NCBI GenBank assembly: GCA_045546535.1
Contig: JAZQDA010000173.1
Coordinates: 20,116-44,115 of the forward strand
DNA: 24,000 nt
Direction: 5' to 3'
Source of the DNA: Clostridia bacterium
GTDB lineage: Bacteria; Bacillota; Clostridia; UMGS1810
Shown: positions 5,150-22,617 of the stretch, in pieces
Position numbering within the stretch: the first letter of the stretch is position 1
Layout: each line of letters opens with the position of its first letter
The notes under the pieces: generated by a model
The model's database searches: none
The model's input: the letters and a program-made list of their open reading frames with translations, nothing else
What the model was told of the DNA's origin: nothing
Made by a program: the position numbers and the translations under genes

Positions 5150-5529
5150 AACTCGGCGGTGTTATTTGGCACTCCTCGCGCATAAACGAGGAAAATGCCG
5201 AGGTTGCCGAGTTCGCCAATCCCCAAGCAATCCGCACTCGCGCCAACTACTTTTCCGTGATGCCCGCGACCTCGCGTGGCTTTTTGGAAGTAATGCAGTA
5301 CGGCGAGGACTTGGATAGCACTTGGACGGCTATTGCGAATGACCGCGTTTTCCACGGCAAGGTCAAAGAGGGCGACTTGTTTTGGCTTGACGGCGAAAGA
5401 CCGCCCGAAGAAATCACCGAGGACTACGGATATGCCGAGAGCGCAACGGCGGTTGTCAAGAGCGTTGCCTATGTCAACCACACAATTTCCGTCACCCTTA
5501 CTCGCAACAAAGAGCAAGTGAAACGATGA
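5146..5529 (+). CDS. Head closure / head-tail joining protein (positional call)
   Basis: 127 aa, translationally coupled on both sides (ATGA overlaps). Second neck gene. Confidence 0.45.
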   Translation: MKLGGVIWHSSRINEENAEVAEFANPQAIRTRANYFSVMPATSRGFLEVMQYGEDLDSTWTAIANDRVFHGKVKEGDLFWLDGERPPEEITEDYGYAESATAVVKSVAYVNHTISVTLTRNKEQVKR

Positions 5530-6565: not shown

Positions 6566-6575
6566 GGAGATTGAT

Positions 6576-7322: not shown

Positions 7323-7359
7323 ATTTAACTTCATAAAATACCCGTAGAGGAGAATAATT

Positions 7360-7956
7360 ATGAGCAAACTTACACCTTATTTTGAACTGAACGGAACTCG
7401 CTATGAGTTTAGAAGAACTCGTTGGCTGATTGCCGAGTATGAGAAACTTGGCAGAGAAATGGCTTTGTCGCCCGAAGATAAAGCCGATGCTATGAAAGCA
7501 AACAACCTTATGGCAGATGCGAAGCGTTTTGCCGAGAAGGAAAGCGAAATGTGGGAAAGACTTTGCGAAAATCCCACGCCCGAAAACCGCGCCACTTATT
7601 CTATGTTCAAGGAAATGAGTGACGAGGCGATTGCAAAGTACAATGACTTTATCGCCAAGAACGATACTGTGAACACTTCCTTTAAGCGCAGTATTGACAT
7701 TCTTGAAAAAATCGCAATCAAGGCACTTGCCGAGCAGTATTTCGGTATGAACGAAGCACTTGCAAAGCAGACTTGGGAAATGTTTGTTGACACAATAGAC
7801 GACCATAATAAAGTAGGAGAATGGCTTATCGCGTTTGGTGATTGTCTGTTTGTTGACGATGATAACGAGGAAGATACGGGTTTTTTAGCACAGAAGCGGA
7901 AGATGGACGAGGAACGAGCGAACAACAGAAAGTCCGCGCTCCGCAGAAAGAGATAA
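7360..7956 (+). CDS. Tail assembly chaperone (gpG-like, zero-frame product)
   Basis: 198 aa and acidic, located between the major tail and tape measure genes. It contains the slippery heptamer near its 3-prime end. Confidence 0.7.
   Translation: MSKLTPYFELNGTRYEFRRTRWLIAEYEKLGREMALSPEDKADAMKANNLMADAKRFAEKESEMWERLCENPTPENRATYSMFKEMSDEAIAKYNDFIAKNDTVNTSFKRSIDILEKIAIKALAEQYFGMNEALAKQTWEMFVDTIDDHNKVGEWLIAFGDCLFVDDDNEEDTGFLAQKRKMDEERANNRKSALRRKR
7878..7884 (+). promoter_or_regulatory. -1 programmed ribosomal frameshift slippery heptamer G_GGT_TTT
   Basis: In the zero frame of the 7360 ORF the codons read acg GGT TTT, giving the X_XXY_YYZ pattern GGGTTTT. The -1 frame is open from 7866 through 8306. 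Confidence 0.6.
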
Positions 7957-8306
7957 AAGACTATTACCAATATATTTATGACGAGGTTTTGCCTTCTGCC
8001 TTTCAATACGGACAACCGCTTGACGAATTTTGGCACGGAGATATGCGTTGCCTTGAAGCACGAAGAAAAGCATATATAAGAGATGTATGTTTTAGAGCGT
8101 GGAAACAAGCCGACTATGACCGAATTGCTATGGAGATAGGCGCAAAGAACGCTATGGCGACCAAAAAGAGTGAGCGTATTGATAGGTGGATTGAGCTCAC
8201 CGACCCTATAGAAAAGATTGAAAAGGCAAACGCAAAACCGAATGATTTGAGTGTGGAACAACATAACCAAAATATGTGGTTTTTGCACGATGTTTTGAAG
8301 AAATAA
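7884..8306 (+). CDS. gpT-like extension, expressed as a G-T fusion through the -1 frameshift
   Basis: The -1 frame is continuous from 7866. The table start at 7989 is only a TTG, with GAGG 3 nt away (too close for an SD), and there is no ATG. The gene pair lies upstream of the tape measure gene. Confidence 0.6.
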   Translation, partial: FSTEAEDGRGTSEQQKVRAPQKEIKDYYQYIYDEVLPSAFQYGQPLDEFWHGDMRCLEARRKAYIRDVCFRAWKQADYDRIAMEIGAKNAMATKKSERIDRWIELTDPIEKIEKANAKPNDLSVEQHNQNMWFLHDVLKK

Positions 8307-8322
8307 TAGAGAGGCGTTCATA

Positions 8323-10287: not shown

Positions 10288-10295
10288 GGTAAATA

Positions 10296-11660
10296 ATGGC
10301 AACAGTAAACTCATACAAAGATAAATACATCGGAGTTGACCGACCTTCCGTATATGACATTTTGCAGAAGGTCGGCACTACGGAATACCGAGAGGGTGCG
10401 ATTAAGGAATACAAAGCCGTTGATATTGCAGAGGTAAAGATTGACGGCAATCGTTTCCGCAACTATGGCGTGTATAGTTTCATTTTGGAAAAGACCTTTG
10501 TGAAGCAACCCAAAAGAAGCGCAGATGGTAGTCTTGGAAACCTTAACGCCTACGCGACTTTCCTCACTCCGCACTTGATTATGGACTTTTCGGTGATGTC
10601 TATTGACGACTACCGCAAAATTATGCTTTTGCACTACGGCGCAAATGAGTTCACGGTTGAGTGCTATGACCCGATTTACAACCGCAAAATCAAAGTCAAA
10701 ATGTACTTTGCCACCGAGGAAATGGCGAAGCTATACACCATCGCCCAAAACCGCCTTTTGCCCGACGGGCAATGGGAAGAATGGGTTGACCTTGTTGGCG
10801 TGACCGAGTACAAGGTTGAACTTATCGGCACGAACAACGACCTTGACCTTGTAAGTGTGCGATATGTATATTCTGCAAATGATGAAAATGGAAATCCGAT
10901 ATTTAACGCCCCCAACGGCTCTCCTATGCCCGACCAATACGAAGAAGATATTTACTTAGGCGAGGAAATTGTTGTTGGTTCTAATTCGACTTTCCAAAAT
11001 ACTCCCCCAAATGCCGCTTATCAATTCTCCCATTGGACTATGCTTTCGCAGAACGAAAACGGAGAATATGAAGAACTGGGCAAAAGAACAAATGGTCTTG
11101 TAATAACTATAAATGCGCCAACAATTTTCCGCGCAGAATGGGAGCCAACAGGGACTCACAATCTTTCGTTCAACTATGGGATTTCCGATGTTGACTATAC
11201 TGTGGATAGCGCAACGGGCATAAGGACGGACATCCTAAGCAGGGAAGTTCAAGAAGGTCAAAGTATTGGCATTTTGCCGAAATTGACCGCAGAGCCGTTT
11301 GTAACAGGCGCAGATAATAAAAAATACTACCCTTACACAAATGGCGGTTGGTACAAGCACCCTGTTAAACAAGCGGATATGCAAGTTTTCAGCAACGAGT
11401 TGTATTGGATGGATAGAGATACCATTATCTACGCGCTTTACGACAAGAAACCATTTTCGGTGACTTATGTGACAGACGCGCCGAACACCGATATCCCAAC
11501 TCAAACTCTTTATTACGGCGACCAAGTTTATCTTCCTACGCTTGCGCGTGACGGATATAGTTTTCAAGGTTGGTACATTGATGAAGATAAGAAAACGGCG
11601 TTTAGCGGAAATATGCCCCCCTATTCCATTACTCTTTACGCAAGGTGGGTTAAGTCGTGA
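10296..11660 (+). CDS. Distal tail protein (Dit)-position protein with three C-terminal Listeria-Bacteroides (Flg_new-type) repeats
   Basis: First gene after the tape measure. The C-terminal repeats end in the signatures YQFSHW...IFRAEW, GGWY...IIYALY and GYSFQGWY...ITLYARW. Confidence 0.6.
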   Translation: MATVNSYKDKYIGVDRPSVYDILQKVGTTEYREGAIKEYKAVDIAEVKIDGNRFRNYGVYSFILEKTFVKQPKRSADGSLGNLNAYATFLTPHLIMDFSVMSIDDYRKIMLLHYGANEFTVECYDPIYNRKIKVKMYFATEEMAKLYTIAQNRLLPDGQWEEWVDLVGVTEYKVELIGTNNDLDLVSVRYVYSANDENGNPIFNAPNGSPMPDQYEEDIYLGEEIVVGSNSTFQNTPPNAAYQFSHWTMLSQNENGEYEELGKRTNGLVITINAPTIFRAEWEPTGTHNLSFNYGISDVDYTVDSATGIRTDILSREVQEGQSIGILPKLTAEPFVTGADNKKYYPYTNGGWYKHPVKQADMQVFSNELYWMDRDTIIYALYDKKPFSVTYVTDAPNTDIPTQTLYYGDQVYLPTLARDGYSFQGWYIDEDKKTAFSGNMPPYSITLYARWVKS

Positions 11661-12346
11661 TTGAATTAAATGCTGAAATTCAAATCAAGAAAGAAAACAA
11701 ATACCCGTTTCGCATTGGGTTTAGCAAACTTGGAGAAGATTTATTCGGAAAAGATATTGATAGAACGGAAAAAATCAATAAAAGAAATATACTTTCTTTG
11801 GATAGCGAAATTAGGGATAGAGCAGAAAAAAACAAGCCAAATTTTGGTTTGATTTCAAGTGGTGGTGCTTTATCTTTCAAGGACAACAATAAGGTTTTCT
11901 TGAAATATGCAAACACAAAACTTTTAGACGGAAACGAAAAGGTGTTGGTGTTTTTGGAAAACAAACTCGCAAAAAACAGAGAAAAAGTTGGCGAATATTA
12001 CACCCAAAATTGGAAATATGACAACAATAATGGAGTCGTTTCCGTTTCTCTAATAGATGGTCTTGAAGATATGCAAAATAAAAATATTGGAGATATAAGT
12101 TTGCTGAACGAGCAAGAAGAAAAAACTCTTTACGATTTTTATTTGATGGTCAAGGCAAGTTTGGAAGAAAATGGATATAAATTGAAAGAAATCAGCGAAA
12201 ATCTCACCGAGTTTATGAAAAATGTTTCCGTTAAATATCCTTATTTTTCAAGAAATTCCGCTTGGAATTATTTGCTTAAAATATCTACCGCTTGTATGGC
12301 TAATTCCTATAAAGGTAAAGATGGTTTGATTTATACTATGGAGTAA
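11657..12346 (+). CDS. Hypothetical tail-tip/baseplate protein (Tal position, part 1), AT-rich
   Basis: 229 aa, with a GTGA overlap with the Dit-like gene. G+C drops abruptly. The call is positional only. Confidence 0.5.
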   Translation: MIELNAEIQIKKENKYPFRIGFSKLGEDLFGKDIDRTEKINKRNILSLDSEIRDRAEKNKPNFGLISSGGALSFKDNNKVFLKYANTKLLDGNEKVLVFLENKLAKNREKVGEYYTQNWKYDNNNGVVSVSLIDGLEDMQNKNIGDISLLNEQEEKTLYDFYLMVKASLEENGYKLKEISENLTEFMKNVSVKYPYFSRNSAWNYLLKISTACMANSYKGKDGLIYTME

Positions 12347-12350
12347 TATT

Positions 12351-13790
12351 ATGCCTATTATAATTAAAAGCAAAAATATTTTTTCTGTTGAAAATGAAAA
12401 GTTTACTAATGCAGTAAAAGATGCGCGGATAGAAGAAACAGCTTTTTCAACAAATCAAGCCCAACAAATTTTTAGCATAAACTTGGAATACAAAAGAACA
12501 GAAACGGGGTTAAGCGAATTTGGCAAATCCGAGGGGTATCAAAACATCTCTTTCTTTCAAGGGGACGGAGATTATAACCGATATGTTCAATTCAGTTTTG
12601 AAACAGAACTTAACGAAAAAATTTTCTTGTTAAGAAACGCCAAAGTAAAATTGTCTTTGACTGGAGAGGAATACAACCCAAACAACATAGACGATGATGA
12701 AAATGGCTCTGTTGACGATAATGAATATAACGACCAATATTCTTTTACAAATTCATACGATAGCCAAATTGGAAGCAATATATTTTTTTCTATTATCAAA
12801 AAAGAAGAAGATTTTAAGCCAATCGGGATTTATGCAACAGTAGGAATATATAGGTTATCAAGGAATAAAGCGAAAATCTTTGTTGTTTTGCCATATTACT
12901 ATGATAATTCATATTCGTATCTTACAAGGACATATAAGAGAGCCGAAATATACTTGTGCGCTGATGAACAGATTACTAATTCTGTTGGGGAAGATGGAAG
13001 TTTTCTTCAAATAAGTAACAACGAAATTATAAATGAAACAACAATCGTTTCGGAAACAACAAAAACGCCGAGCGAAACTCCAAGTTGGTTTTTGAAAATA
13101 AGACAATCTTCCGATTTTTATGGAAGTGGAAGTTATTACTACTTTGTTAATGATAAAGAAGAAAGTTCGTCTTTTATATCATCAAGTATTGGCACAAATG
13201 ATGTTAGATTTAGCATCTACAATTTTTATTCAAACACCAATCTTTCTTTCAGCGAAGAAACAATTTCAAAATTGAAAAATTGCAAGATAGAGTGCAACGG
13301 ATTTTTAATTTCTGCAAGCGTTTCCGAAACAACTCAAAATATGGGGGACGGAAACAAAATAACTGTAAATGTTCCAGACGAGGAATGGGAAAAAACTGGA
13401 AAAACTCTTTCGGAGTTTAGAGGAGCAGAAAAAACTTTTTATTTTGATTATTTTGTTGGAGGAGAAGAAACTACAACAACGGAAAAAATATCCGAATTTA
13501 TAAGAAGAAAAGTTGTTGGGGAGTGGCAAAGAGGAAAAGAAAGTTCCAAAATGCTTTGCTCAATTTCAGATTACTATAATGAAAATGGTGAAAAAATCAT
13601 TGATATAAAAAGCGAGAAGATGTCTTTTAATATCGGCGAAAATGTAATTCCTATGGTTTTTGGAGAAAACAGAATTGACCGCCCTATGTCAAAAAACGCA
13701 GACGGAAGCGCAAAGGTTTTCCGCGTTTGTGGTATAAAGTTCATTTATGACGGCGCGGTTTGGCAAGAATTAACTTTACAAGAGGTTTGA
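12351..13790 (+). CDS. Hypothetical tail-tip/baseplate protein (Tal position, part 2), AT-rich
   Basis: 479 aa, rich in N/S/E/K/Y. Sampled 60-nt lines have about 20-30 percent G+C. The call is positional only. Confidence 0.5.
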   Translation: MPIIIKSKNIFSVENEKFTNAVKDARIEETAFSTNQAQQIFSINLEYKRTETGLSEFGKSEGYQNISFFQGDGDYNRYVQFSFETELNEKIFLLRNAKVKLSLTGEEYNPNNIDDDENGSVDDNEYNDQYSFTNSYDSQIGSNIFFSIIKKEEDFKPIGIYATVGIYRLSRNKAKIFVVLPYYYDNSYSYLTRTYKRAEIYLCADEQITNSVGEDGSFLQISNNEIINETTIVSETTKTPSETPSWFLKIRQSSDFYGSGSYYYFVNDKEESSSFISSSIGTNDVRFSIYNFYSNTNLSFSEETISKLKNCKIECNGFLISASVSETTQNMGDGNKITVNVPDEEWEKTGKTLSEFRGAEKTFYFDYFVGGEETTTTEKISEFIRRKVVGEWQRGKESSKMLCSISDYYNENGEKIIDIKSEKMSFNIGENVIPMVFGENRIDRPMSKNADGSAKVFRVCGIKFIYDGAVWQELTLQEV

Positions 13791-13791
13791 A

Positions 13792-14355
13792 ATGGCTAAT
13801 TTTGAATTAAAACCAATTTCATTTGATAATATCAACAAAGGTGTTAGATACGAGAACGGGGATATTGTTGAAGCGGAAACGATAAACGCCCCCATTGAAG
13901 CCAGTGCATACGCGCAAGAGTTGGCGCGGCAGGCGTTGGAAGTTGCACAAAGCGGAGAAAGCGGTCAAGTTACCCTTGCGGCTTACCCAATCGGCGCGGT
14001 TTATATTTCCTCTGACATTATTAGCCCTGCCGAACTTTTTGGTGGAGATTGGATTGAAATCCACGATACTTTTTTGGTTGCAAACGGTGATAATTTTATT
14101 GCTGGCGATAATGGTGGAGCACTTTCTCACTATCACGACAAAGGAACTTTGCAAACCGAACTTGCAATTATAAGCGGTAAAATTAGATTAAATACCGTTG
14201 GAAAGTCTTGGGAAAGTTCTTGGTCGCACACGGCATCAACTGGCGTAAGTGAAACATTAACAAATGCCGAAACTGTAAAAATGAGTGGTGTAACAGCCGA
14301 GGCAGAGCATTTGCCACCTTGGAAAGCCTTTTATATGTGGGAAAGAGTGGGTTAA
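13792..14355 (+). CDS. Tail fibre / baseplate protein with phage tail-collar-like domain
   Basis: AYPIGAVYISS...PAELFGGDWIEI...FLVA, then GGALSHYH, and the end motif HLPPWKAFYMWERV. These match the remembered collar-domain fibre pattern. Confidence 0.6.
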   Translation: MANFELKPISFDNINKGVRYENGDIVEAETINAPIEASAYAQELARQALEVAQSGESGQVTLAAYPIGAVYISSDIISPAELFGGDWIEIHDTFLVANGDNFIAGDNGGALSHYHDKGTLQTELAIISGKIRLNTVGKSWESSWSHTASTGVSETLTNAETVKMSGVTAEAEHLPPWKAFYMWERVG

Positions 14356-14358
14356 TTT

Positions 14359-14799
14359 ATGAGAGTTTTTGATGAAAACAAAATTCAAGAATTGTTTTAC
14401 TATGACCTTGAAAAAGGATATTTGTGCGAGGAAAAACTTTTTGTAAAACATCACGAAGCCAAACAAGGCGTTGATGCGATTTGGCACTACGAAACGCAGA
14501 AAGAATACCCCAATGGCGGAAGATTGGTAAAAAAAGTAATTGATGTTCCTGCAATTCCATACGAGCCGAGTTGGGACGAGTATGAGGACATTATGGTTTA
14601 TGTTCCATACAATGCCGAGGAGTTGAAAGAACGCAGAATTTCACAAATTAAAAATCGCCTTTCCCAGTTGAGCGAGGATTTTATTCAATCTTTTGCAGGT
14701 GCGGTAATTTCCGATATTGATGTTCGCAAGGCAGAGTTCGCAAAACTCCATAACGAATTGAGAACGCTTTTGGGTAAAGAACAACGAACTTACTATTGA
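14359..14799 (+). CDS. Hypothetical protein (possible fibre assembly/accessory)
   Basis: 146 aa, tightly packed after the fibre gene, with a coiled C-terminal half. No motif recognised. Confidence 0.55.
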   Translation: MRVFDENKIQELFYYDLEKGYLCEEKLFVKHHEAKQGVDAIWHYETQKEYPNGGRLVKKVIDVPAIPYEPSWDEYEDIMVYVPYNAEELKERRISQIKNRLSQLSEDFIQSFAGAVISDIDVRKAEFAKLHNELRTLLGKEQRTYY

Positions 14800-14815
14800 T
14801 AAATAGGAGATAAAA

Positions 14816-15127
14816 ATGTCAAATGTAATTCAGCAGGGCGCAACACCGACACATAAATTTCATACTCCTTATCCAAAGGATTTTGTGGAAAGTGCAATCA
14901 TCACCTATGAGCAAAACGACAAGATTGTTTTGGAGAAAACAGGCGATGAATTGATTGTTGAGGATAATTCAATTTCTGCGGAACTCACGCAAGAGGAAAC
15001 TCTTTCTTTTGACGATGATTGCGATGTAAAAATCCAGTTAAAAGTGAAATCCCAAAACGGCAGTGTTATTCCCTCAAAAATCATTTATGCCACCGTGGAC
15101 GAAGTTCTTAACAAAGAGGTAATGTGA
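14816..15127 (+). CDS. Hypothetical small beta-rich protein in fibre cluster
   Basis: 103 aa with SD AGGAGA. Its stop overlaps the next start (TGATG). Confidence 0.55.
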   Translation: MSNVIQQGATPTHKFHTPYPKDFVESAIITYEQNDKIVLEKTGDELIVEDNSISAELTQEETLSFDDDCDVKIQLKVKSQNGSVIPSKIIYATVDEVLNKEVM

Positions 15128-15927
15128 TGGCACAATTTGTGGCGGTGTTTGAGCCTATAAACAACACCTTTGAAACCGAGTTTGAGGGCTTCACGCCCGT
15201 TTCGGAAGGCGGCTACGATAAAGGATATGCCAATGGATTTTCCGAGGGCGAGAAAGAAGGGTTTGACAAGGGAAAATCCGAGGGTTTAGAGCAGGGCAAA
15301 AAATTAGAATATGATGTTTTTTGGGATAACGCGCAAAATTATGGAAATAGAGAAAGCCATTCTTATGCTTTCGCTGGCGCAGGGTGGAATGACAATAACT
15401 TTAAGCCAAAATACAATATGCGTGTAACAAATGCTCAATATATGTTCCGTTATACCGCGATTGAGCATTTGGCAGAAATCCTTGCAAGTCAAAAAGTTAT
15501 CATTGATTTTTCTGCGATAACCAACACGGACAGAATGTTTGCGGACGGTGCGCTCGTTCACATTGGCGAGTGTGATTTCACAAACACAAAAAATGTTGCC
15601 AGTACATTTGCAAACGCAAGGTCTTTACAAACTATTGATAAAATAATCGTGAACGAAAGCAATGTTTTTGACACTACTTTTACAAACTGTGCCGCTTTAG
15701 ATAAGGTTGCATTTGATGGTGTTATTGGCAAATCAATAAATTTTCAATGGTCGCCGTTGTCAAAGAAAAGTTTTGAAAATATTATTCCACATTTGTCCGA
15801 AAATGTCACGGGGCAAACCGCTACTTTCAAAAAATCTGCTGTTATAGCGGCATTTGGAAGCACAACATCTGCGGAATGGTTGGCATTGGTTGGTAGCAAA
15901 TCAAACTGGACTATATCGCTTGTATAA
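15127..15927 (+). CDS. Receptor-binding protein candidate with degenerate BspA-type leucine-rich-repeat-like units
   Basis: The N-terminus has the repeat GYDKGYANGFSEGEKEGFDKGKSEGLEQG, common in fibre shafts. Units then recur: MFRYTAIEHL, MFADGALVHI, TFANARSLQTI, TFTNCAALDKV. The start could be GTG at 15124 or ATG at 15127. Confidence 0.5.
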   Translation: MAQFVAVFEPINNTFETEFEGFTPVSEGGYDKGYANGFSEGEKEGFDKGKSEGLEQGKKLEYDVFWDNAQNYGNRESHSYAFAGAGWNDNNFKPKYNMRVTNAQYMFRYTAIEHLAEILASQKVIIDFSAITNTDRMFADGALVHIGECDFTNTKNVASTFANARSLQTIDKIIVNESNVFDTTFTNCAALDKVAFDGVIGKSINFQWSPLSKKSFENIIPHLSENVTGQTATFKKSAVIAAFGSTTSAEWLALVGSKSNWTISLV

Positions 15928-15937
15928 GGAGGAAAAA

Positions 15938-16111
15938 ATGAAATCAAGAACAGTAATATATGCTGACGAGGGAAAAGTCCTCACAAACGGCGAAATTTAC
16001 GGCAAGGAGATATTTCTTGCAGACGGAATGAGCGAATACCAATTCCACGAAATAACAGACAAGGAGTATGAAGAAATCCTTGCGGCGCAGAGCGCAGAAA
16101 GTGAATCATAA
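15938..16111 (+). CDS. Small hypothetical protein (57 aa)
   Basis: ATG at 15938 is preceded by AAGGAGG. The longer table ORF from 15854 overlaps the previous gene and has no SD. Confidence 0.55.
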   Translation: MKSRTVIYADEGKVLTNGEIYGKEIFLADGMSEYQFHEITDKEYEEILAAQSAESES

Positions 16112-16731
16112 TGCCTACTACGGAAGAAATCATTAACGAAAAAGCGAAAAAAATCGTTGAGGGCGAAATTGAGCCGATTGAAGGCGAAGTTTCAAAAAAG
16201 GAAACGCAATCGCAAGTACCAACGCTCCAAATCAATGGGGAAAAAACTCTTGAAGAACAGGCAAAGGATTTAGTTGGAGTTAAGGCAACAGAAAGAGCAA
16301 TCAATGACGAAATCTTAACGGACGGAGTTACCAACCGAAAGAAAGCCGAACTTTTGAGCCACGCCGAGGCTCACTTGAAAAAAGAACAAGCGGAAAACAA
16401 GAAAGCTGACATTCTTTTACAAGAAGCCAATCACGGCGTTTACGATGGAGTTGCCACATACGCAGGCATAAAAAAGGCTTTGCCGCAGAAAATGCAGAGC
16501 GTTCTTTTCCCAATTTTATCCGCAGTGCAAATCATTGTTCTTATTTTAATCGGCGTTCCGATAAGCATTGTGAACATTGTTTTGGATAGCGTTGACAGCG
16601 TTGTGCAAAAAATGCAGAATGTTACTCGGTCTGCTCGGTGGATTGTGCTTGGATTGATTATTTTTGGGATTTTTTGGGTCGCATTTTTGATTATAAAACA
16701 AATTCTATTACAACGAGGTATTTTTTTGTAA
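16111..16731 (+). CDS. Membrane protein, charged N-terminal half plus 2-3 C-terminal TM helices
   Basis: 206 aa. Hydrophobic stretches are VLFPILSAVQIIVLILIGVPISIVNIVL and WIVLGLIIFGIFWVAFLII. TAATG coupling to the previous gene. Confidence 0.6.
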   Translation: MPTTEEIINEKAKKIVEGEIEPIEGEVSKKETQSQVPTLQINGEKTLEEQAKDLVGVKATERAINDEILTDGVTNRKKAELLSHAEAHLKKEQAENKKADILLQEANHGVYDGVATYAGIKKALPQKMQSVLFPILSAVQIIVLILIGVPISIVNIVLDSVDSVVQKMQNVTRSARWIVLGLIIFGIFWVAFLIIKQILLQRGIFL

Positions 16732-16737
16732 AACTCA

Positions 16738-16766
16738 TTGACAAAGCCAAAATTCGGTGCTATAAT
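16738..16766 (+). promoter_or_regulatory. Perfect consensus sigmaA/sigma70 promoter with extended -10
   Basis: TTGACA at 16738-16743, an exact 17-nt spacer, TG at 16758-16759 and TATAAT at 16761-16766. It is intergenic, 29 nt upstream of the ATG at 16795. Confidence 0.7.
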
Positions 16767-16794
16767 TAAAATAAGAAAATATAAGGAGAGAAAA

Positions 16795-16980
16795 ATGCTT
16801 AAAGAGTTGTACGAATACAGAAAGGTTTTTGAAGCAGAACTTGTTAAGGCGCAAGCCCAAGTCGCGGTTGTCGATTTTATGATTGAAGCCGAGGAAAAGA
16901 AACTCGCGCAGAAAGCCGACACGGAGATTGTCGAGATTGAAAATGAGGTAGCGGAGCAACCCACGGACGAAAGTTATTAA
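16795..16980 (+). CDS. Small acidic coiled-coil protein (61 aa)
   Basis: ATG with SD AAGGAGAG. The table start at 16738 is the TTG of the -35 box and was rejected. Confidence 0.6.
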   Translation: MLKELYEYRKVFEAELVKAQAQVAVVDFMIEAEEKKLAQKADTEIVEIENEVAEQPTDESY

Positions 16981-16990
16981 GGGGGGATAA

Positions 16991-17341
16991 ATGATGTATA
17001 ATCACATCGTTGAAAACGCAATCGCGCAGATTGAAGCAACTCGCAATAGAGAAATTGAAGCGGCTCGTCAAAAGGCAACGCAAGAGGAAATCGTACCTTT
17101 TAATAGGGACATTGATGAGCATTTGAGAAATGCGATTGCAGAACTTCAAAAGCAACACAACGAAAAAATTGCAAATCTCCAAAAGGTTTTTGAGGCAGAA
17201 AAGGCATCTCTTGCCGAAGCCGCCGCGAAGAAGAAGGAGCAGTTTGCAGAAACCGCGCTTGCAACCGCCGTTTCCGTAATCAACGCAAAGGCAAACGAGA
17301 AGATTGCATATTTCAAGAAAGCCATTGACGAGGGGGCTTGA
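16991..17341 (+). CDS. Coiled-coil protein (116 aa), unknown function
   Basis: SD is GGGGGG. The sequence is an A/E/K-rich heptad-like helix throughout. Confidence 0.6.
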   Translation: MMYNHIVENAIAQIEATRNREIEAARQKATQEEIVPFNRDIDEHLRNAIAELQKQHNEKIANLQKVFEAEKASLAEAAAKKKEQFAETALATAVSVINAKANEKIAYFKKAIDEGA

Positions 17342-17343
17342 AA

Positions 17344-17796
17344 ATGAACGCGATTTTTGAAAATCAAGTTTCAGTTTATTGCATTATGGCAGTTTTGATT
17401 TTCGCACTTACGCAAGGTCTTAAATGGGCTTTTGTAAAGCCTTTCACGAACAAAATCAAGAACAAAAAGGTGAGAAAAGCGGTCAACACGACCATTTATT
17501 TCATTCCCTACGCCCTCGGCATTGGTTTTGAGTTTGTTTATTCCGTGATGATTATGCACGGCGAGTTCAACGCGGTTATGGGTATTATCCACGGCACTTC
17601 TGGCATTGCTTGCTACGGTGTGTTTGAGCGTTTTTACTCATTTATCACTGGCAAAAGTTCTAACATTGAAAACCCCTACGAAACAACCGAAACTGGTCGC
17701 GCTGTTCAAGAGCTTATGAAAAGCGTTTCCGAGGACGGCAAGTTTGACGAAAAAGACCACCCTGCGGTCACGGCGTTTCTTCAAAAAGTTAAGTAA
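17344..17796 (+). CDS. Holin candidate (three TM helices plus charged C-terminal tail)
   Basis: The ATG follows GAGGGGG. TM helices are VSVYCIMAVLIFALTQGLKWAF, IYFIPYALGIGFEFVYSVMIM and AVMGIIHGTSGIACYGVF, followed by a hydrophilic tail rich in E/D/K. Confidence 0.55.
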   Translation: MNAIFENQVSVYCIMAVLIFALTQGLKWAFVKPFTNKIKNKKVRKAVNTTIYFIPYALGIGFEFVYSVMIMHGEFNAVMGIIHGTSGIACYGVFERFYSFITGKSSNIENPYETTETGRAVQELMKSVSEDGKFDEKDHPAVTAFLQKVK

Positions 17797-18386
17797 TGAA
17801 GCCGATTAAAAAAGCAATAATTATATGTTGGGTTATGCTCGTTGCGTGTTTCGCTATCAAACTTTTCGGTGGAAACTAGTTTGATGCCGTTTGCACCAAC
17901 GAGCATTTTGTAAATATATGCAGAATAGTTGATAATAATTGGTTTTTATATTATCCCATCGGACTATCTTTATATGTTTTGTCTACTATTTTCGTAGTTT
18001 TATCAGTATCAAACTACAAAAGATTTAGTAAAAAAGGGTTTTTGACACTTATTTGTGTTTTAATTTTATTGTGGTCAACACAATTTATTTCATCTACAAC
18101 AAAATTTTTCGCAGACACTTTGTTTTTGATTTTTTCTCCGTTGGTAATACATTTAATACAAGAGAAAAATATTAAAAGTGTTATAAAAAGAAACTGGTAT
18201 AAAGGAATATTTTGTTTTTTAATAACATTTATATTCCAATTTATATCATTAGTAACAAAAAATGTTGGCATAAAAATAACAGACGATAGCACACTTGTAA
18301 CTGCAATATTGCTAATTGATTATTATATTATGATAATTCTATACTATCTGTATATGAAAAAATCAAAGGAGGGGAAAAATGGGTAA
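17796..18386 (+). pseudogene. Polytopic membrane protein ORF interrupted by one in-frame TAG (17877-17879); pseudogene or amber read-through gene
   Basis: The ATG at 17796 overlaps the holin stop (TAATG). The same frame stays open to 18386 apart from the TAG. The 135-aa table ORF has only a TTG start without an SD, and no ATG until near its end. Confidence 0.5.
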
Positions 18387-18528
18387 CTTTGGATTGCTTT
18401 TCTTTAGCGAGAGAATCGCACAACTCAAAGCGTTCCGCGCCACCCTTACCGACCCTGCACAGATTGCAGATGTTGATAGGGAAATCGCGGCTCTCGAAGC
18501 CAAGCAAGCAGAAAAGCAGGGCGAGTAA
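18379..18528 (+). CDS. Small peptide gene (49 aa), hydrophobic N-terminus and charged C-terminus
   Basis: Strong SD AAAGGAGGGG at 18366-18375 with ATG at 18379. The stop overlaps the next ATG (TAATG). Sequence: MGNFGLLFFSERIAQLKAFRATLTDPAQIADVDREIAALEAKQAEKQGE. Confidence 0.55.
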   Translation: MGNFGLLFFSERIAQLKAFRATLTDPAQIADVDREIAALEAKQAEKQGE

Positions 18529-19067
18529 TGAGTTGGCGAGTTAAGTTTCGGCTCTTTCAAGTGGCGACTTACGGGATAGTGTTTGCGACTATTGCGCTGA
18601 TGGCGGTTGTCACGGGAAAATACATTGAAACAATCGGTTTGTTTGTCAGTTTTGTTTCTTTGCGATACGCGTTTGAAAAGACTTGGCACTCAAAGTCGTT
18701 TTGGCGGTGCATTTTCATAAGTTGCGTTGTGTTTGTGGTGGCGATAGCATTTGTGCCGAATAAGGGCGTGAGCCTTTTGTCTTGCGTTGCTTTCGGCTTG
18801 TGCATTGACTATGTTGCTTACAAATACAAGGACTACGAAGATATACGCCTTGAATTATACAAGCCGTTCAATGTTGACACTTGCACAAGAGCCGAACTCT
18901 TAACTCGTTGCAGACAAGTCGGTTTATCCGAGGAAAACACGGAACTCGCGGTTGAGTTCTTTATTAAGAAAACCAAACAAAGCGAAATCGCAGACTGCCT
19001 TTGCATTAACGAGAAATCTGTGCAAATCCGAAAGAAGCGATTGCGACAAAAACTTAATAAAAATTGA
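18528..19067 (+). CDS. Membrane-anchored HTH protein: N-terminal 4-TM domain with AgrB-like H-x2-S-x3-C-x3-S motif fused to a sigma-70 region-4/LuxR-type HTH
   Basis: There are four hydrophobic helices in residues 1-100, including LRYAFEKTWHSKSFWRCIFIS. The C-terminus LSEENTELAVEFFIKKTKQSEIADCLCINEKSVQIRKKRLRQKL fits the region 4.2 HTH pattern. Confidence 0.65.
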   Translation: MSWRVKFRLFQVATYGIVFATIALMAVVTGKYIETIGLFVSFVSLRYAFEKTWHSKSFWRCIFISCVVFVVAIAFVPNKGVSLLSCVAFGLCIDYVAYKYKDYEDIRLELYKPFNVDTCTRAELLTRCRQVGLSEENTELAVEFFIKKTKQSEIADCLCINEKSVQIRKKRLRQKLNKN

Positions 19068-19105
19068 GATTGTATCCCTTTTGTGGGTGTGCAATCTCTT
19101 TTTTT
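19066..19105 (+). terminator. Rho-independent terminator
   Basis: A 9-bp stem pairs gagattgta (19066-19074) with tgcaatctc (19090-19098). Inner ccc/ggg pairing is also possible. A T7 run follows at 19099-19105. Confidence 0.7.
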
Positions 19106-19155
19106 ATTGCTAAAATGAGGGCAGAAAACAAAATAAATAACAAAGGAGAAACGCT

Positions 19156-19704
19156 ATGAACTACTATCCGTATTCTTCGCCGTATGGAGCGCAAAACAGA
19201 GCGCAGTATGGCGTTCCGTCCTATGGGGGCTATAACTACACTCCCCAACCCCAACAAATGCCCGTACAGCCCCAAAATCAGCCCCAAGCGCAACCTCAAT
19301 ACGAAATGCCAATACAATATGTAGGAAACGGAACACTAAAAGAAGCAGAAGCATATATATTGTTCCCAAGCCAAAAAGCATTTTTCATAGACAAATCAAA
19401 CGGAATGGTTTATGAGAAAGTTTGCGGTCAAGACGGGCAATCGTTTATTTCTCGCTTTAAGAGAATTGACGACACCGACGAAAACAAACCCGCAGAAAAA
19501 GAAAATCCCTCGCAACCCGATTTCAAGGATTTCGTTAAGTTGCAGGATATAAACAAGTTTGGATTTGCCACGATGGACGATATTAAAAATCTTGGATTTG
19601 CAACAATGGAGCAAGTCAAGGAACTTTCGCAGAAAATTGATACTCTACAAAATCAAAGAACGGGGGTAAAACAGAATGTCGGAACAAGCAAACCACAAGT
19701 GTGA
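19156..19704 (+). CDS. Q/P/Y-rich low-complexity N-terminus protein with small globular core and duplicated C-terminal motif
   Basis: SD is AAAGGAGA. Residues 1-55 are YPYSSPYGAQ...PQPQQMPVQPQNQPQAQPQYE. The motif GFATM(D/E)xxK occurs twice. Confidence 0.7.
   Translation: MNYYPYSSPYGAQNRAQYGVPSYGGYNYTPQPQQMPVQPQNQPQAQPQYEMPIQYVGNGTLKEAEAYILFPSQKAFFIDKSNGMVYEKVCGQDGQSFISRFKRIDDTDENKPAEKENPSQPDFKDFVKLQDINKFGFATMDDIKNLGFATMEQVKELSQKIDTLQNQRTGVKQNVGTSKPQV
19558..19623 (+). repeat. Tandem 33-nt (11-codon) duplication inside the 19156 gene
   Basis: tttggatttgccacgatgga at 19558-19577 versus cttggatttgcaacaatgga at 19591-19610. These encode FGFATMDDIKN and LGFATMEQVKE. Confidence 0.6.
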
Positions 19705-19819
19705 TTGCGGTAGCGCAAAAAAGATAAAATCTCTTGAAGCCCAAGTGTCAATTTTGAAAACTATGGTTGACGGGCTTTGCAAAGAACTCTCCACTTTGAG
19801 AAGGGCGGTAAGAAAATGA
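19676..19819 (+). CDS. Small coiled-coil protein (47 aa) with CxC motif
   Basis: The ATG follows GGGGG and overlaps the end of the previous gene. Its stop overlaps the next ATG (ATGA). It is below the ORF-table size cutoff. Confidence 0.45.
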   Translation: MSEQANHKCDCGSAKKIKSLEAQVSILKTMVDGLCKELSTLRRAVRK

Positions 19820-20058
19820 ATTGCGGTTACGATGTAAATCAAGCGTTGCAAAACCTTTTCGCTATGAAAAACGCAGGGCGCAACCCCCAACAAATTATGC
19901 AACTGCTCATTCAGCAAAATCCTCAAATCAAAAACACGCTCGGTACTCTGCAAAATATGGCGCAGGGCAAGTCGCCAAAGGAGTTTTTCTCCCAACTCGC
20001 TCGGCAAAACGGCGTGAACGAACAGAATATGGCTCAACTTATGGCTATGTTCCAATAA
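19816..20058 (+). CDS. Q/N/M-rich helical protein (80 aa)
   Basis: ATG at 19816 is coupled to the upstream small ORF. The table start at 19777 is a non-ATG codon without an SD. Confidence 0.6.
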   Translation: MNCGYDVNQALQNLFAMKNAGRNPQQIMQLLIQQNPQIKNTLGTLQNMAQGKSPKEFFSQLARQNGVNEQNMAQLMAMFQ

Positions 20059-20103
20059 TGGTATCGGCAACGGACTTTCAAGCGCGCAGAAAGAATGTTG
20101 TTT

Positions 20104-20112
20104 TGATATAAT
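20104..20112 (+). promoter_or_regulatory. Extended -10 promoter candidate (TGaTATAAT)
   Basis: TG at 20104-20105 and TATAAT at 20107-20112, in the intergenic gap 25 nt upstream of the ATG at 20137. No good -35 box was found. Confidence 0.4.
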
Positions 20113-20136
20113 TTATTTTTAAGGAGAATAACTAAT

Positions 20137-20880
20137 ATGTCTGGTTATTACGAAGGCGATTTGTGCCTTTCTAATGGAAACTCCAACAACGGTTGGAATG
20201 ATTGGTCTTGGATTATCGGACTTGCGCTTGTAGGCGGTTTGTTCGGTGGTTGGGGCAACGGCTTTGGCGGTGGCTTCGGCGGCGGTCGTGGTGGCTTCGG
20301 CTATCCTTGCTTTGATGCTCCTGCCACCCAAGCAGACCTCGCGGCTGGCTTCAACAACTCTGCCGTTCTGTCCTCGCTGAACGACATCAAACTCGGTCAG
20401 GCGCAGGCAATCAACTACAACAACCAAGGTTTCAGCGGTCTTAACGCAACCATCAACGCAGGTTTCAGCGGCGTTGACAACGCAATCTGCACCCTTGGCT
20501 ATCAGCAAGCACAACTTGTGAACGGTCTTTCCCGTGAACTCGCTGATTGTTGCTGTGCCACACAGCGTGCCATTGACAGTGTTAAATTTGAGAACTGCCA
20601 AAACACTGCGGCTATCGTAAACGCAAGCAACGCCAACACCCGTGCAATCCTTGATTTCCTCACGGGCGAGAAGATTGCGGCTCTGCAAGCCGAGAACAGC
20701 GGTTTGAAGGCGCAGATTTCCAATGACCGCCAATCGGCGTATATCATTGATGCACTCGCTCCGAAGTGCCCTCAGCCCGCTTTCGTCGTTCAGCCGCCTC
20801 AGCAAGTGACTTTCCCCACTAACTGTTGCGGCAATGTGGCATACGCTGGCTACGGCGCGTGCGGCGCAAGCGTTCAGTAA
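20137..20880 (+). CDS. Glycine-rich, cysteine-rich membrane/secreted protein (247 aa)
   Basis: SD is AAGGAGA. A TM-like segment is followed by a Gly run: WIIGLALVGGLFGGWGNGFGGGFGGGRGGFG. Cys clusters are CCC, NCCG and ACG. Codon usage is strongly biased and the gene is flanked by its own promoter and terminator. Confidence 0.75.
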   Translation: MSGYYEGDLCLSNGNSNNGWNDWSWIIGLALVGGLFGGWGNGFGGGFGGGRGGFGYPCFDAPATQADLAAGFNNSAVLSSLNDIKLGQAQAINYNNQGFSGLNATINAGFSGVDNAICTLGYQQAQLVNGLSRELADCCCATQRAIDSVKFENCQNTAAIVNASNANTRAILDFLTGEKIAALQAENSGLKAQISNDRQSAYIIDALAPKCPQPAFVVQPPQQVTFPTNCCGNVAYAGYGACGASVQ

Positions 20881-20929
20881 TCAAAACTGAATAATCGAAA
20901 CGAGGACTAATTATCCTACCAAATTCCAA

Positions 20930-20962
20930 GGGGCAGGGGCAACAGTCCTTGCCCCCACTTTT
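20930..20962 (+). terminator. Rho-independent terminator
   Basis: A 9-bp GC-rich stem pairs ggggcaggg (20930-20938) with ccttgcccc (20947-20955), with one G-U pair. The loop is 8 nt and TTTTT follows at 20958-20962. Confidence 0.7.
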
Positions 20963-20979
20963 TATAAGGAGAAAACGAA

Positions 20980-21429
20980 ATGTTACTGATTGGCACTAAA
21001 AATATTGGCACGCAGACCGTACTTGCGGACGGCGTTGTCAACATCGGCACTACCTACCGCAAGTTCTGCAAAAGAAATCGTTGCGGCGTTCCCACTTTTG
21101 GCGTGACCGCCAACGGCGTAACCCTCAACACCGAGGGCATTTACCACATCACCGCGGTTTTTGTTGGTAGCGGCTCTGCGGCAGGCGACCTTACTATTGC
21201 GCTTGCGCTCAATGGCGTTCTTGTGGACGGCGCGGTTTCCACCCAGACCATCACCACGGCTGACACCGAAATCCGCACTTGGGTTATCGACTACTACGCC
21301 AAGGTTGACACCGATTGCGTTCTCGGCGTGACAAGCACCGATGCGCAGACTGTTTCCTTTGTGAATACGAGCGAAGCCATTGATGCAACTTTCACGAGCG
21401 TGGTTGTAAACATCGACAAGGTGGTATAA
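20980..21429 (+). CDS. Stand-alone BclA C-terminal-like (C1q/TNF-like jelly-roll) domain protein
   Basis: GIYHITAVFVGSGSAAGDLTIALALNGVLVDG ... SVVVNIDKV resembles the remembered B. anthracis BclA C-terminal domain pattern GFYKITVIAN...LTIQVNGVPVPG ... SIIIEKV. Confidence 0.55.
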   Translation: MLLIGTKNIGTQTVLADGVVNIGTTYRKFCKRNRCGVPTFGVTANGVTLNTEGIYHITAVFVGSGSAAGDLTIALALNGVLVDGAVSTQTITTADTEIRTWVIDYYAKVDTDCVLGVTSTDAQTVSFVNTSEAIDATFTSVVVNIDKVV

Positions 21430-21433
21430 GGCT

Positions 21434-22243
21434 ATGGACGAGAGAATGATGTATGACGGGCGCAGACTTCCCCCTCGCAACTCTCGCGGTGAGTTTATGA
21501 GCCGTGGGCGTGGCAGAGGTCGGCGCGGCGACAGAGGTATGGACTACGGAGATATGCGCGGCGATATGCGTATGCGCGATGGTCGCGTTATCCGCAGTTA
21601 TCCCACTATGCACCCCCAAGGCGACTACGGCGATATGAACTACGATATGGAGCGTGGTGGCAGAGGTCGCGGAGGTAGAAGCCGTGGCGATTATGGCGAC
21701 TATCGTGGCGATATGCGCGGTGGCGACTACGCTATGGACGGTCATTATCCGCAGGGTCAAGGCGCAACCTACTATCCCATTCAAGCAATGGGAACTTTTG
21801 AGGGTTATTATGGTATGCCTGAACAAGATTACGCGCGTGGGCGCGATTACGGCTACGATATGCGTGGCGGCTATGGTCGCCGCGACTACGGCGATTACGG
21901 CTATGACGATTACGGCGATTTCGGCGAAACGCTTTCCACCGAGGAGCTTAAAAGGTGGGAACACAAACTTATGGAGCAACTTGACGAGCGCGAGAAGCAG
22001 ATGTTCCACAAGGACACCATTATGCAGAAAATCAAGCAAATGGGAAAGCCGATGGAAGGTTTCGGGGAAAAGGAACTTTACACGGCAACCCTCATGGTCT
22101 ACACCGACTATAAGCAAAGTATCGGCGCAAATCCCGACCTAGCCGTGAAACTCGCCTATGATTGGCTTTCCGACAAGGATGTTGCCGTCAAGGGCGCGGA
22201 AAAACTCGCCGTTTACTACGATTGCATCGTTGAGGGCGAATAA
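21434..22243 (+). CDS. RG/DY-rich intrinsically disordered N-terminal region (about 160 aa) fused to a helical C-terminal domain
   Basis: Recurring units are RGRGRGRRGDRG, GDYGDYRGDMRGGDY and RRDYGDYGYDDYGDFG. An ordinary helical sequence follows from ETLSTEELKRWEHKL onward. Confidence 0.75.
   Translation: MDERMMYDGRRLPPRNSRGEFMSRGRGRGRRGDRGMDYGDMRGDMRMRDGRVIRSYPTMHPQGDYGDMNYDMERGGRGRGGRSRGDYGDYRGDMRGGDYAMDGHYPQGQGATYYPIQAMGTFEGYYGMPEQDYARGRDYGYDMRGGYGRRDYGDYGYDDYGDFGETLSTEELKRWEHKLMEQLDEREKQMFHKDTIMQKIKQMGKPMEGFGEKELYTATLMVYTDYKQSIGANPDLAVKLAYDWLSDKDVAVKGAEKLAVYYDCIVEGE
21491..21930 (+). repeat. Low-complexity coding repeats (GGCGA(C/T)TACGG / CGCGG(C/T)GATATGCG variants)
   Basis: Imperfect short direct repeats are visible at the DNA level. 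They generate long spurious ORFs in other frames and on the minus strand. Confidence 0.6.
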
Positions 22244-22617
22244 TGGCGGCTTTCCGTTATTACAATCGTAACGATGACCCAACAATTCACCGAAACGATT
22301 GTGTAACAAGGGCAATTTCCCTTGCAAGTGGCTTGCCGTATTCAGAGATAAGGCGAAAACTCCGTAATACGGCAAGTTTACTTGATTGCGAGAGTTCATT
22401 GTGCCCTACTTGCTATTCCTTCCTCATTCAAGAAGTGTTGGGCGGTGTTCCGAAAGATTGTTACGGAATGACAGTTGGAGAATTTGCCGACAAACATTCA
22501 AATGGGACTTACCTTATAAGAATATCGGGACACCTAACTTGCCTCATAGACGGAATTTTATATGACTTGTGGAATTGTCTTGATAAGCCGTGTTCGCTTG
22601 CTTGGGAAATTCGCTAA
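22243..22617 (+). CDS. Small putative cysteine peptidase-fold protein (Cys20 / His97 / Asp103 or Asp108 candidates)
   Basis: NDCVTRAISLASGLPYSEI near the N-terminus and ISGHLTCLIDGILYDLW near the C-terminus fit the papain/C39/CHAP-like Cys...His...Asp order. TAATG coupling to the upstream gene. Confidence 0.4.
   Translation: MAAFRYYNRNDDPTIHRNDCVTRAISLASGLPYSEIRRKLRNTASLLDCESSLCPTCYSFLIQEVLGGVPKDCYGMTVGEFADKHSNGTYLIRISGHLTCLIDGILYDLWNCLDKPCSLAWEIR

Follow-up and report, generated by a model that had tools for sequence, protein, structure and literature searches.

The AgrB protein of the staphylococcal and clostridial agr quorum-sensing system (Pfam PF04647) is known as a dedicated maker of thiolactone autoinducers, which are read by a separate two-component system. 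Its catalytic His/Cys dyad, the thioester intermediate, the recognition of the charged C-terminal tail of the AgrD propeptide and a contact between R70 and E34 have been reviewed (PMC10482373). In phages, agr genes are known from the Clostridioides difficile phage phiCDHM1, which carries host-derived AgrB, AgrD and an AgrC kinase as separate homologues of the bacterial genes (PMC3901668). Other phages communicate by arbitrium (AimP/AimR) and related RRNPP systems, where a small peptide gene lies next to an HTH regulator at the boundary between gene blocks. Finally, membrane-bound one-component regulators of the ToxR, CadC and BcrR types hold an HTH at the membrane by transmembrane helices, while GerE is a small single-domain LuxR-type regulator. 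Here, we describe a conserved cassette in which a peptide gene is coupled to a predicted AgrB-like membrane protein fused to an HTH domain. Our literature searches found only phiCDHM1-type agr genes in phages and no AgrB-HTH fusion.

The cassette is located in a stretch of 24,000 nucleotides (the window) from a Clostridia bacterium assembly (GCA_045546535.1, contig JAZQDA010000173.1, positions 20,116 to 44,115 of the forward strand). All features lie on the plus strand and are numbered from the first letter of the window. A Shine-Dalgarno sequence, AAGGAGGGG, at 18366-18374 is found 6 nt before the ATG at 18379, and relatives have AAAGGAG at the same distance. It precedes a 49-aa ORF at 18379-18528 (MGNFGLLFFSERIAQLKAFRATLTDPAQIADVDREIAALEAKQAEKQGE), the TAA of which overlaps by one base the ATG (18528) of a 179-aa ORF at 18528-19067. 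A strong hairpin terminator follows. The ORFs and signals are where the original prediction had placed them, and its observation is confirmed.

To evaluate the relationship with AgrB, we searched the 179-aa protein against family profiles. Residues 7-91 match the Pfam AgrB profile with an E-value of 7.5e-8 and 32.4 bits against a curated cut-off of 23, and most homologues carry a precomputed PF04647 assignment. However, the match covers only positions 24-111 of 185, i.e. the N-terminal half of the profile, and the NCBIfam equivalog NF002210 scores only 15 bits against a cut-off of 282. In a profile alignment R46, H54 and C61 are placed on AgrB R70, H77 and C84, although the S. aureus AgrB sequence used here was an approximate one, which hit Staphylococcus records at 60% identity. 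The motif LRYAFEKTWHSKSFWRCIFIS corresponds to residues 45-65. The original prediction had noted that an SFW triplet is shared with AgrB, but with His and Cys in register the triplets of the two proteins are offset by one residue, and across the family only His and Cys, not SFW, are conserved.

The AlphaFold2 model (pLDDT 88.7) has four long helices at 3-29, 32-48, 58-75 and 82-110, followed by a four-helix HTH domain at 121-177; the six-helix architecture of the full-length, ~190-aa AgrB is not present. The AgrB-like core (residues 1-110) is encoded at 18528-18857, with the putative catalytic His54 at 18687-18689 and Cys61 at 18708-18710. The distribution of positive charges (N-terminus MSWRVKFR, loop FEKTWHSKS, linker YKYK) places His/Cys and the HTH in the cytoplasm. 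Neither a sequence profile search of the PDB copy used nor Foldseek found an AgrB structure, and only the HTH part matched, so that a minimal AgrB of about 110 residues would be useful for structural and mechanistic work.

His54 and Cys61 are invariant in our alignment of the family (A1), and both are kept in 244 of 246 members drawn from the best 120 and best 150 hits of two family searches, down to below 40% identity, along with R46/K and E34. The family is sizeable, as an exhaustive search counted 611 proteins at E <= 0.001, including HTH-only and other partial matches. It could be argued that the helices are only a membrane anchor or sensor without catalysis and that the small ORF is an unrelated small phage protein, given that half of the AgrB profile is missing and that the peptides match no AgrD model. 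We find this very unlikely due to the retention of His54 and Cys61, and because the peptide gene co-occurs with the AgrB-HTH gene, is fused in frame in some genomes and in 13 variants has an AgrD-type Cys core.

The peptide gene is present upstream of the AgrB-HTH gene in 36 of 37 related loci, as 29 distinct sequences, and is under purifying selection with dN/dS of 0.07-0.49. Sixteen variants, including the one in the window, start with MG plus a hydrophobic run followed by [S/G]-[E/D] and lack Cys. Thirteen variants from distant relatives carry an invariant Cys in a C-x-x-W-[FI]-[FL]-G-[ND]-E core followed by an acidic tail, which is the AgrD layout. Neither peptide type matches the Pfam or NCBIfam AgrD models, and the peptide of the window has no Cys or Ser-lactone candidate in the expected place, five residues before the cleavage site. 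The original prediction listed as caveats that the peptide has no Cys and lies upstream of the AgrB-like gene. Both are softened, as the 13 distant relatives have the Cys and the upstream position is the rule in this family. A lack of AgrB similarity, of conserved His/Cys or of the small ORF in relatives had been named beforehand as grounds for rejecting the idea, and none of the three was observed.

The C-terminal domain (residues 114-179, 18867-19067) resembles a sigma-70-region-4/LuxR-type HTH by predicted fold and by weak sequence matches. TIGR02937 (sigma70-ECF) gives an E-value of 7.8e-5 (22.4 bits against a cut-off of 42.9) and GerE 0.031 (14.3 bits against 23.5), both below their curated thresholds, and EvgA in the PDB is found with an E-value of 0.04. 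Local Foldseek hits go to KorA (probability 1.0, rmsd 2.1 A over 60 residues), SigR region 4 and small phage "ECF sigma factor" proteins of 70-82 aa. The domain has a conserved motif, DTCTxxELxxRC (Cys119, Cys128), and a basic recognition helix, EKSVQIRKKRLRQKL. K169, R171 and K175 are invariant in the 28-sequence alignment, and K169 and R171 are the commonest residue in 202 and 196 of 268 sequences in a wider set, where K175 was not tabulated.

Sigma region 4 folds bind helical partners, and ECF-sigma/anti-sigma complexes are among the weak fold hits. The C-terminal domain might therefore be a docking module for the amphipathic tail of the peptide, replacing the missing C-terminal half of AgrB in substrate recognition, in which case the module would only make a peptide. 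One 122-aa protein that joins the peptide directly to the HTH agrees with this, but it comes from a single 1.1-kb contig. We consider this reading unlikely, given the near-invariant basic residues of the recognition helix. Further, stand-alone HTH homologues of 68-91 aa exist without any AgrB or peptide, at the same genomic position and with the same downstream hairpin, which points to an ancestral regulator, and the AgrB core is also fused to several other, unrelated HTH types, suggesting that the architecture is selected.

The original prediction missed a third conserved partner. Upstream of the peptide gene lies a gene for a ~200-aa polytopic membrane protein (family A2) at 17796-18386, the first gene of the three-gene cassette. 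A tblastn search with the homologues from two related loci (L001 and L004) covers 17796-18383. In the window the gene is interrupted by an in-frame TAG at 17877-17879, and the longest clean ORF is 17979-18386 (135 aa). Relatives have TGG (Trp) at this position; stop-codon recoding was rejected, as this is a single TGG-to-TAG change and no tRNA gene was found in the window. The A2 family is always adjacent to the peptide gene and has no Pfam or PDB match, neither by sequence nor by fold. The idea that it represents the missing half of AgrB was rejected, as hhalign of A2 against A1 and against AgrB gave a probability below 1%.

The physical association of the three parts is supported by gene fusions. 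About 20 of the best 150 representatives (335-433 aa) are single polypeptides of membrane domain, peptide-like linker (LVVF-SESE, SLVY-SESIE) and AgrB-HTH. In addition, one protein (P0205) fuses the membrane protein and the peptide in frame, and another (P0306) the peptide and AgrB. The fused forms show that the peptide segment can be an internal linker, which fits a cis-processing role as well as signal production. In such a model, the AgrB core would cut the junction between the membrane partner and the tail, in cis in the ~400-aa fused forms and in trans on the 49-aa peptide here, to assemble or re-model a membrane complex at the end of the late operon, for example for lysis timing or superinfection exclusion. 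The freed helical tail, or its degradation, would gate the HTH inside the same cell, without an extracellular signal. The cassette follows coiled-coil and small membrane proteins at the end of the structural block, no receptor genes are present, and the tight translational coupling suggests near-stoichiometric partners. However, the invariant Cys of the 13 variants is located five residues before the G-[ND]-E motif, as in thiolactone-forming AgrD, and would not be needed in a mere cleavage site. The N-terminal hydrophobic residues vary between close relatives while the pattern is kept, as in signal-specificity groups, and no endolysin or recognised holin family was found next to the cassette. 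We therefore regard this alternative as possible but doubtful.

All contexts are siphovirus-like gut contigs, and the family is confined to phage-like contigs from gut Clostridia. A tblastn search of the GenBank phages with the 179-aa protein found no match, and PADLOC models of defence systems gave no hit for the cassette or its neighbours. Neither an AgrC histidine kinase nor an AgrA LytTR regulator was found among the window ORFs scanned or in the precomputed Pfam lists of the ~12-kb and ~20-kb loci of relatives, so any sensing route is hypothetical. A lysis-lysogeny role is not supported, as no integrase or repressor appears in the Pfam lists of the ~20-kb loci and all genes lie on one strand.

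A sequence-conserved hairpin, also missed by the original prediction as a conserved element, follows the HTH gene at 19066-19105. The hairpin (GAGATTGTA..TTTTGT..TGCAATCTC) spans 19066-19098 and is followed by a T-run at 19099-19105, with a folding energy of -24.7 kcal/mol (z = -8.8). It is found once per locus, directly after the HTH gene, also in an HTH-only locus (L035). In the alignment of the element (A3) 96% of cells are paired, 7 of 13 pairs show compensatory changes and the TTTTGT loop is invariant. It is an intrinsic terminator of the cassette and a candidate cis-element for the HTH, but G-U pairs are tolerated, which fits an RNA terminator at least as well as a DNA operator, and no second copy of the motif is present in the window or in any fetched locus. 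A promoter-like element at 19088-19116, likewise missed by the original prediction, overlaps the 3' arm of the hairpin and consists of TGTGCA (TGTACA in most relatives), 17 nt and the extended -10 TGCTAAAAT, upstream of the next operon, which starts at 19156. This is the only such arrangement in the window, and a -10-like TAnAAT is kept at a fixed distance in the A3 alignment, but its function is inferred. Sigma-70 promoter-like sites are not above chance in 16800-20200, a search for operator repeats in the window gave nothing convincing, and Rfam gave nothing significant in 16500-20500.

The explanation we favour, although it is about as likely as not, is a phage-borne, minimal Agr-type peptide-processing module wired directly to transcription. 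In this model, the 179-aa protein would insert in the host membrane with both ends in the cytoplasm, and its four-helix core would be the catalytic half of an AgrB cysteine endopeptidase, with His54/Cys61 near the cytoplasmic face. Its substrate would be the translationally coupled peptide, cleaved after the N-terminal hydrophobic stretch (MGNFGLLFF | SERI...) through a Cys61 thioester, with the charged helical tail acting as the recognition element as the AgrD tail does for AgrB. The upstream membrane protein would be a physical partner, which may export or hold the hydrophobic product. The HTH would stay tethered at the membrane and regulate phage transcription, most plausibly at the promoter-like site overlapping the hairpin, and the state of the peptide reaction (substrate or tail bound, acyl-enzyme, or product) would set its activity. 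Against this model count the absence of the C-terminal half of the AgrB profile, the lack of a match of either peptide type to AgrD models, the absence of a receptor kinase or AgrA, and the nonsense codon in the partner membrane gene of the window. The analysis itself establishes the homology, the conserved catalytic residues, the conserved and selected peptide gene, the gene fusions, the predicted fold and the phage context, while cleavage, export or sensing of the peptide, and DNA binding, are inferred in the absence of any biochemical evidence. Among these inferences, catalysis on this peptide and DNA binding by the HTH are both probable, the cleavage site as placed has an even chance, and the hairpin/promoter as target and an extracellular signal as product are both less likely than not. 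The interpretation in the original prediction, a peptide maturation or sensing switch, is thus partly supported. Its alternative of a membrane-sequestered regulator released by proteolysis has no support, and no peptide-like cleavage motif is seen in the TM4-HTH linker.

A bolder but unlikely possibility is a self-contained communication device in which one polypeptide is both synthase and receptor. After Met removal, the invariant N-terminal Gly amine of the leaderless peptide would resolve the Cys61 thioester to give a head-to-tail cyclic hydrophobic octapeptide, cyclo-GNFGLLFF, which would be new chemistry for the AgrB family. The membrane-permeant product would accumulate among infected cells and, because AgrB catalysis is reversible, could re-acylate or occupy the same core in other cells, switching the tethered HTH and thereby the promoter after the hairpin. 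The Cys-less MG peptides in any case raise the question of what the enzyme does when no thiol is available, hydrolysis or N-terminal cyclisation. If the enzyme acts on the peptide, this is a new and very compact way to couple peptide processing to transcription in a virus, and possibly a second type of phage peptide communication after arbitrium.

Compared with arbitrium and other RRNPP systems, the cassette shares a small phage peptide gene next to an HTH regulator at the boundary between gene blocks. However, no TPR domain is found in the protein or its neighbours, the peptide has no signal-peptide-like leader, there is no Opp-dependent import logic, the regulator is predicted to be membrane-embedded with a peptidase core, and these phages show no integrase in the parts examined. 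As in the ToxR, CadC and BcrR types, an HTH would be held at the membrane by transmembrane helices, but here it is C-terminal to a peptidase-type membrane core rather than attached to a sensor domain, while the stand-alone homologues resemble GerE-like single-domain regulators. As in phiCDHM1, a phage carries agrB- and agrD-like genes, but here the AgrB is a truncated core fused to a putative DNA-binding domain and there is no kinase. From the bacterial agr system the locus differs in that an HTH replaces the C-terminal half of AgrB, the peptide gene lies upstream rather than downstream, AgrC and AgrA are absent and a third, unrelated membrane protein belongs to the cassette. What it has in common with agr is a polytopic membrane protein with a His-x6-Cys pair and a preceding Arg in register with AgrB, and an adjacent, co-transcribed peptide of ~45-55 aa with a hydrophobic core followed by a charged tail, which in 13 relatives has an invariant Cys just before the hydrophobic core, as in AgrD.

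The region reads as the original prediction described it. A Shine-Dalgarno sequence (AAGGAGGGG, 18366-18374) precedes a 49-aa ORF (18379-18528, MGNFGLLFFSERIAQLKAFRATLTDPAQIADVDREIAALEAKQAEKQGE), and the TAA of that ORF overlaps by one base the ATG of a 179-aa ORF (18528-19067). A hairpin plus T-run follows at 19066-19105, and folds at -24.7 kcal/mol, z = -8.8 against shuffles.

To identify the 179-aa protein, we compared it with Pfam. Residues 7-91 match AgrB (PF04647) with an E-value of 7.5e-8 and 32.4 bits, above the curated cut-off of 23, although only profile positions 24-111 of 185 are covered. A profile alignment to S. aureus AgrB puts R46, H54 and C61 on R70, H77 and C84; the AgrB sequence used was approximate, and found Staphylococcus records at 60% identity. 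With His and Cys in register, the 'SFW' triplets of the two proteins are offset by one residue, i.e. the shared triplet in the originally proposed motif is not meaningful. The C-terminal 65 residues match sigma70-ECF (TIGR02937, E 7.8e-5) and GerE (E 0.031), both below their thresholds, and they also align with the EvgA HTH. An AlphaFold2 model built on 28 homologues (pLDDT 88.7) has helices at 3-29, 32-48, 58-75 and 82-110, followed by a four-helix domain at 121-177. Foldseek matches the C-terminal domain locally to KorA, SigR region 4 and small phage 'ECF sigma' proteins. Basic residues are located at the N-terminus, in the 49-57 loop and after helix 4. From the sequence we therefore predict an N-in/C-in topology, with His54/Cys61 and the HTH in the cytoplasm.

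A word-indexed search found 174 homologues of 178-200 aa with the same architecture, and an exhaustive HMMER search of 1.84 billion cluster representatives found 611 proteins at E <= 0.001 and 324 at E <= 1e-10. In an alignment down to 40% identity, H54 and C61 are invariant. Among 246 retrieved members that cover the N-domain, 244 keep both residues, position 46 is R in 226 and K in 9, and E34 is kept in 223. Such conservation argues for retained catalysis rather than a mere anchor. The same four-helix core also occurs fused to other, unrelated HTH domains (family representatives P0347, P0364, P0378 and others).

The HTH domain also occurs alone, as proteins of 68-91 aa that keep the DxCTxxELxxRC motif (loci L035-L037, 4962-5201, and representatives P0355, P0336 and P0299). 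In L035 the gene follows a 328-aa membrane protein and sits at the same position relative to the syntenic downstream genes and the same hairpin as in the other loci. Two Cys residues (C119 and C128, within residues 114-128 of the 179-aa protein, 18867-18911) flank the first helix of the HTH domain. They are invariant in the 28-sequence alignment, are the commonest residue in the wider family set (196 and 240 of 268 sequences), and are also kept in these HTH-only homologues; a metal, redox or acyl relay role can only be suggested.

In 36 of 37 fetched loci that carry an AgrB-HTH gene with upstream sequence, a 44-66-aa ORF ends within a few bases of, or overlaps, the start of that gene. The exception, locus L006, keeps only a tail remnant. 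There are 29 distinct peptide sequences, of two types. Type B (16 sequences, including the one in the window) always starts with MG, followed by six or seven aromatic or hydrophobic residues, then mostly [S/G]-[E/D], and then a long charged helix, and has no Cys. Among close relatives the pattern is G-x-[FW]-G-x-x-[FL]-F | S-[ED], with the x positions variable. Pairwise dN/dS of the type B ORF is 0.07-0.49; it is therefore a coding gene under purifying selection.

Type A (13 sequences; loci L005, L013, L016-L019, L021, L022, L025-L030 and L033) is found next to AgrB-HTH proteins about 33-43% identical to that of the window. These peptides read ME.AKKID.S.RP...GG..C-x-x-W-[FI]-[FL]-G-[ND]-E...D[LM]K.KF..VDDEKKD, i.e. 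an invariant Cys, a short hydrophobic core and an acidic tail, which is the AgrD layout. However, neither type matches Pfam or NCBIfam AgrD models, so the resemblance is one of layout and not demonstrated homology.

Directly upstream of the peptide gene lies a ~200-aa polytopic membrane protein, characterised by the conserved motifs AIxxCWxxLxxCFxIKLFGGNWFE...NEHF and FQxISLITRNIGIK...IDYYIMxxLYYLY. Searches gave no Pfam family and no PDB fold match for it, and profile comparison shows that it is not related to AgrB. In the window this gene (17796-18386), which is especially AT-rich, carries an in-frame TAG at 17877-17879 where close relatives have TGG, the Trp of the GGNWFE motif. This is a nonsense mutation or a sequencing error in this genome. 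It is not recoding, as no tRNA gene was found in the window and no other gene shows it.

About 20 of the best 150 family representatives are proteins of 335-433 aa in which the membrane domain, a 40-50-aa linker and the AgrB-HTH form one polypeptide (among them P0288, P0289, P0295, P0296, P0300, P0311, P0333 and P0340; also locus L042, 827-2041). Several linkers contain a peptide-like 'hydrophobic run + S-E' motif, such as LVVF-SESE and SLVY-SESIE. The best viral structure match is such a fused protein, automatically named 'Accessory gene regulator B' in UniProt/BFVD (A0A8S5R960, 429 aa, E 1.6e-9). Other fusions exist: P0205 joins the membrane protein to a type B peptide, P0306 joins a peptide to the AgrB core, and P0287 joins a peptide to the HTH, although P0287 is a single 1.1-kb contig and weak evidence. 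These fusions argue that the three products act together on the cytoplasmic face of the membrane.

The window is a siphovirus-like phage, with a large terminase (13-1425), portal (1801-3264), major head protein (3927-4808), tape measure protein (8323-10287) and tail proteins. The cassette closes the structural block, after a coiled-coil protein and a 152-aa membrane protein. No endolysin or recognised holin family was found among the scanned ORFs of the structural and late block (13-17800), although small membrane proteins (16111-16731, 17338-17796) precede the cassette. The next block includes DUF7841 and, in relatives, Sipho_Gp157, PD-(D/E)XK nuclease and a G39P-type loader. Two unusual low-complexity proteins are encoded downstream: one of 269 aa (21434-22243) with an R/G/D/Y/M-rich repetitive N-terminal half and a weak DUF7841 match at the C-terminus, and a 247-aa Gly-rich protein (20137-20880, phrog_16490) that is syntenic in relatives. 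A 124-aa ORF at 22243-22617 has the motifs NDCVTRAIS and GHLTCLIDG, reminiscent of a papain-like Cys/His peptidase, but no Pfam or PADLOC hit. The composition is markedly heterogeneous: GC is 0.32-0.41 across the tail and cassette region (12000-19000), against 0.50-0.56 in the head genes (4000-6000) and in 20000-22000.

All genes lie on one strand, and no AgrC, AgrA, integrase or repressor appears in the Pfam lists of the ~20-kb loci. The relatives come from gut metagenomes and from contigs binned with Clostridia, Christensenellaceae and Eubacteriales, plus one Gastranaerophilales bin. All of these contigs are short, phage-sized or smaller (3-58 kb). No GenBank phage record and no PADLOC model matches.

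Immediately after the stop codon, nearly all loci carry one copy of GAGATTGTAyryyTTTTGTrggTGTACAATCTC followed by a T-run. Besides the window (19066-19116 with the promoter-like site that follows the T-run), it is present at the same position in L001, L004-L011, L014-L016, L020-L022, L024, L025, L028-L030, L035 and L039. This includes type A loci and the HTH-only locus L035, i.e. the element follows the HTH gene even where the AgrB part is absent. In a 22-sequence alignment 96% of cells pair and 7 of 13 pairs show compensatory changes (0 of 500 shuffles reach this), while the loop TTTTGT and the TGTA/TACA core are invariant or nearly so. The 3' arm supplies a -35-like TGTACA (TGTGCA in the window, 19088-19093), and 17 bases downstream sits a conserved extended -10-like TGnTAwAAT (TGCTAAAAT in the window, 19108-19116), ahead of the next operon at 19156. 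Downstream of this promoter-like site, the type A loci carry a second conserved stem, GTGAGGGC...CCCTCAC, in the presumed 5' leader of the next operon. The element is certainly a terminator-type hairpin. A role as the operator of the HTH is inference, and the tolerance of G-U pairs favours an RNA role.

In AgrB, His77/Cys84 cleave off the AgrD C-terminal tail through a thioester, the tail and an R70-E34 contact contribute to substrate recognition, the reaction is reversible, and the released tail is degraded (PMC10482373). By analogy, we propose that the phage protein cleaves the adjacent peptide after its hydrophobic stretch, and that the reaction state would then control the tethered HTH, which would regulate phage transcription. 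The similarity to AgrB, the conservation of the His/Cys pair, the selected peptide gene, the gene fusions and the phage context rest on the analysis itself, whereas cleavage, the topology, control of the HTH and its DNA target are inferred. Type A peptides could form thiolactones. Type B peptides cannot, so their product would be either linear or closed through the N-terminal Gly amine, the latter being speculative. The fused forms and the lack of any receptor keep a purely intracellular, cis-processing role as a serious rival. The original proposal of a compact phage-encoded peptide maturation/sensing and transcription switch is partly supported.

Full-text searches found no description of an AgrB-HTH fusion or of this cassette. 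Phage agr genes are known from phiCDHM1 (PMC3901668) and are summarised in a 2025 review (PMC11945551); those are separate homologues of AgrB, AgrD and AgrC, with no response regulator (AgrA). The protein described here agrees with AgrB in sequence and in its catalytic residues, but lacks the full AgrB architecture, an AgrD-family partner and AgrC/AgrA. It is therefore an AgrB-derived core in a new architecture, not a canonical agr locus.
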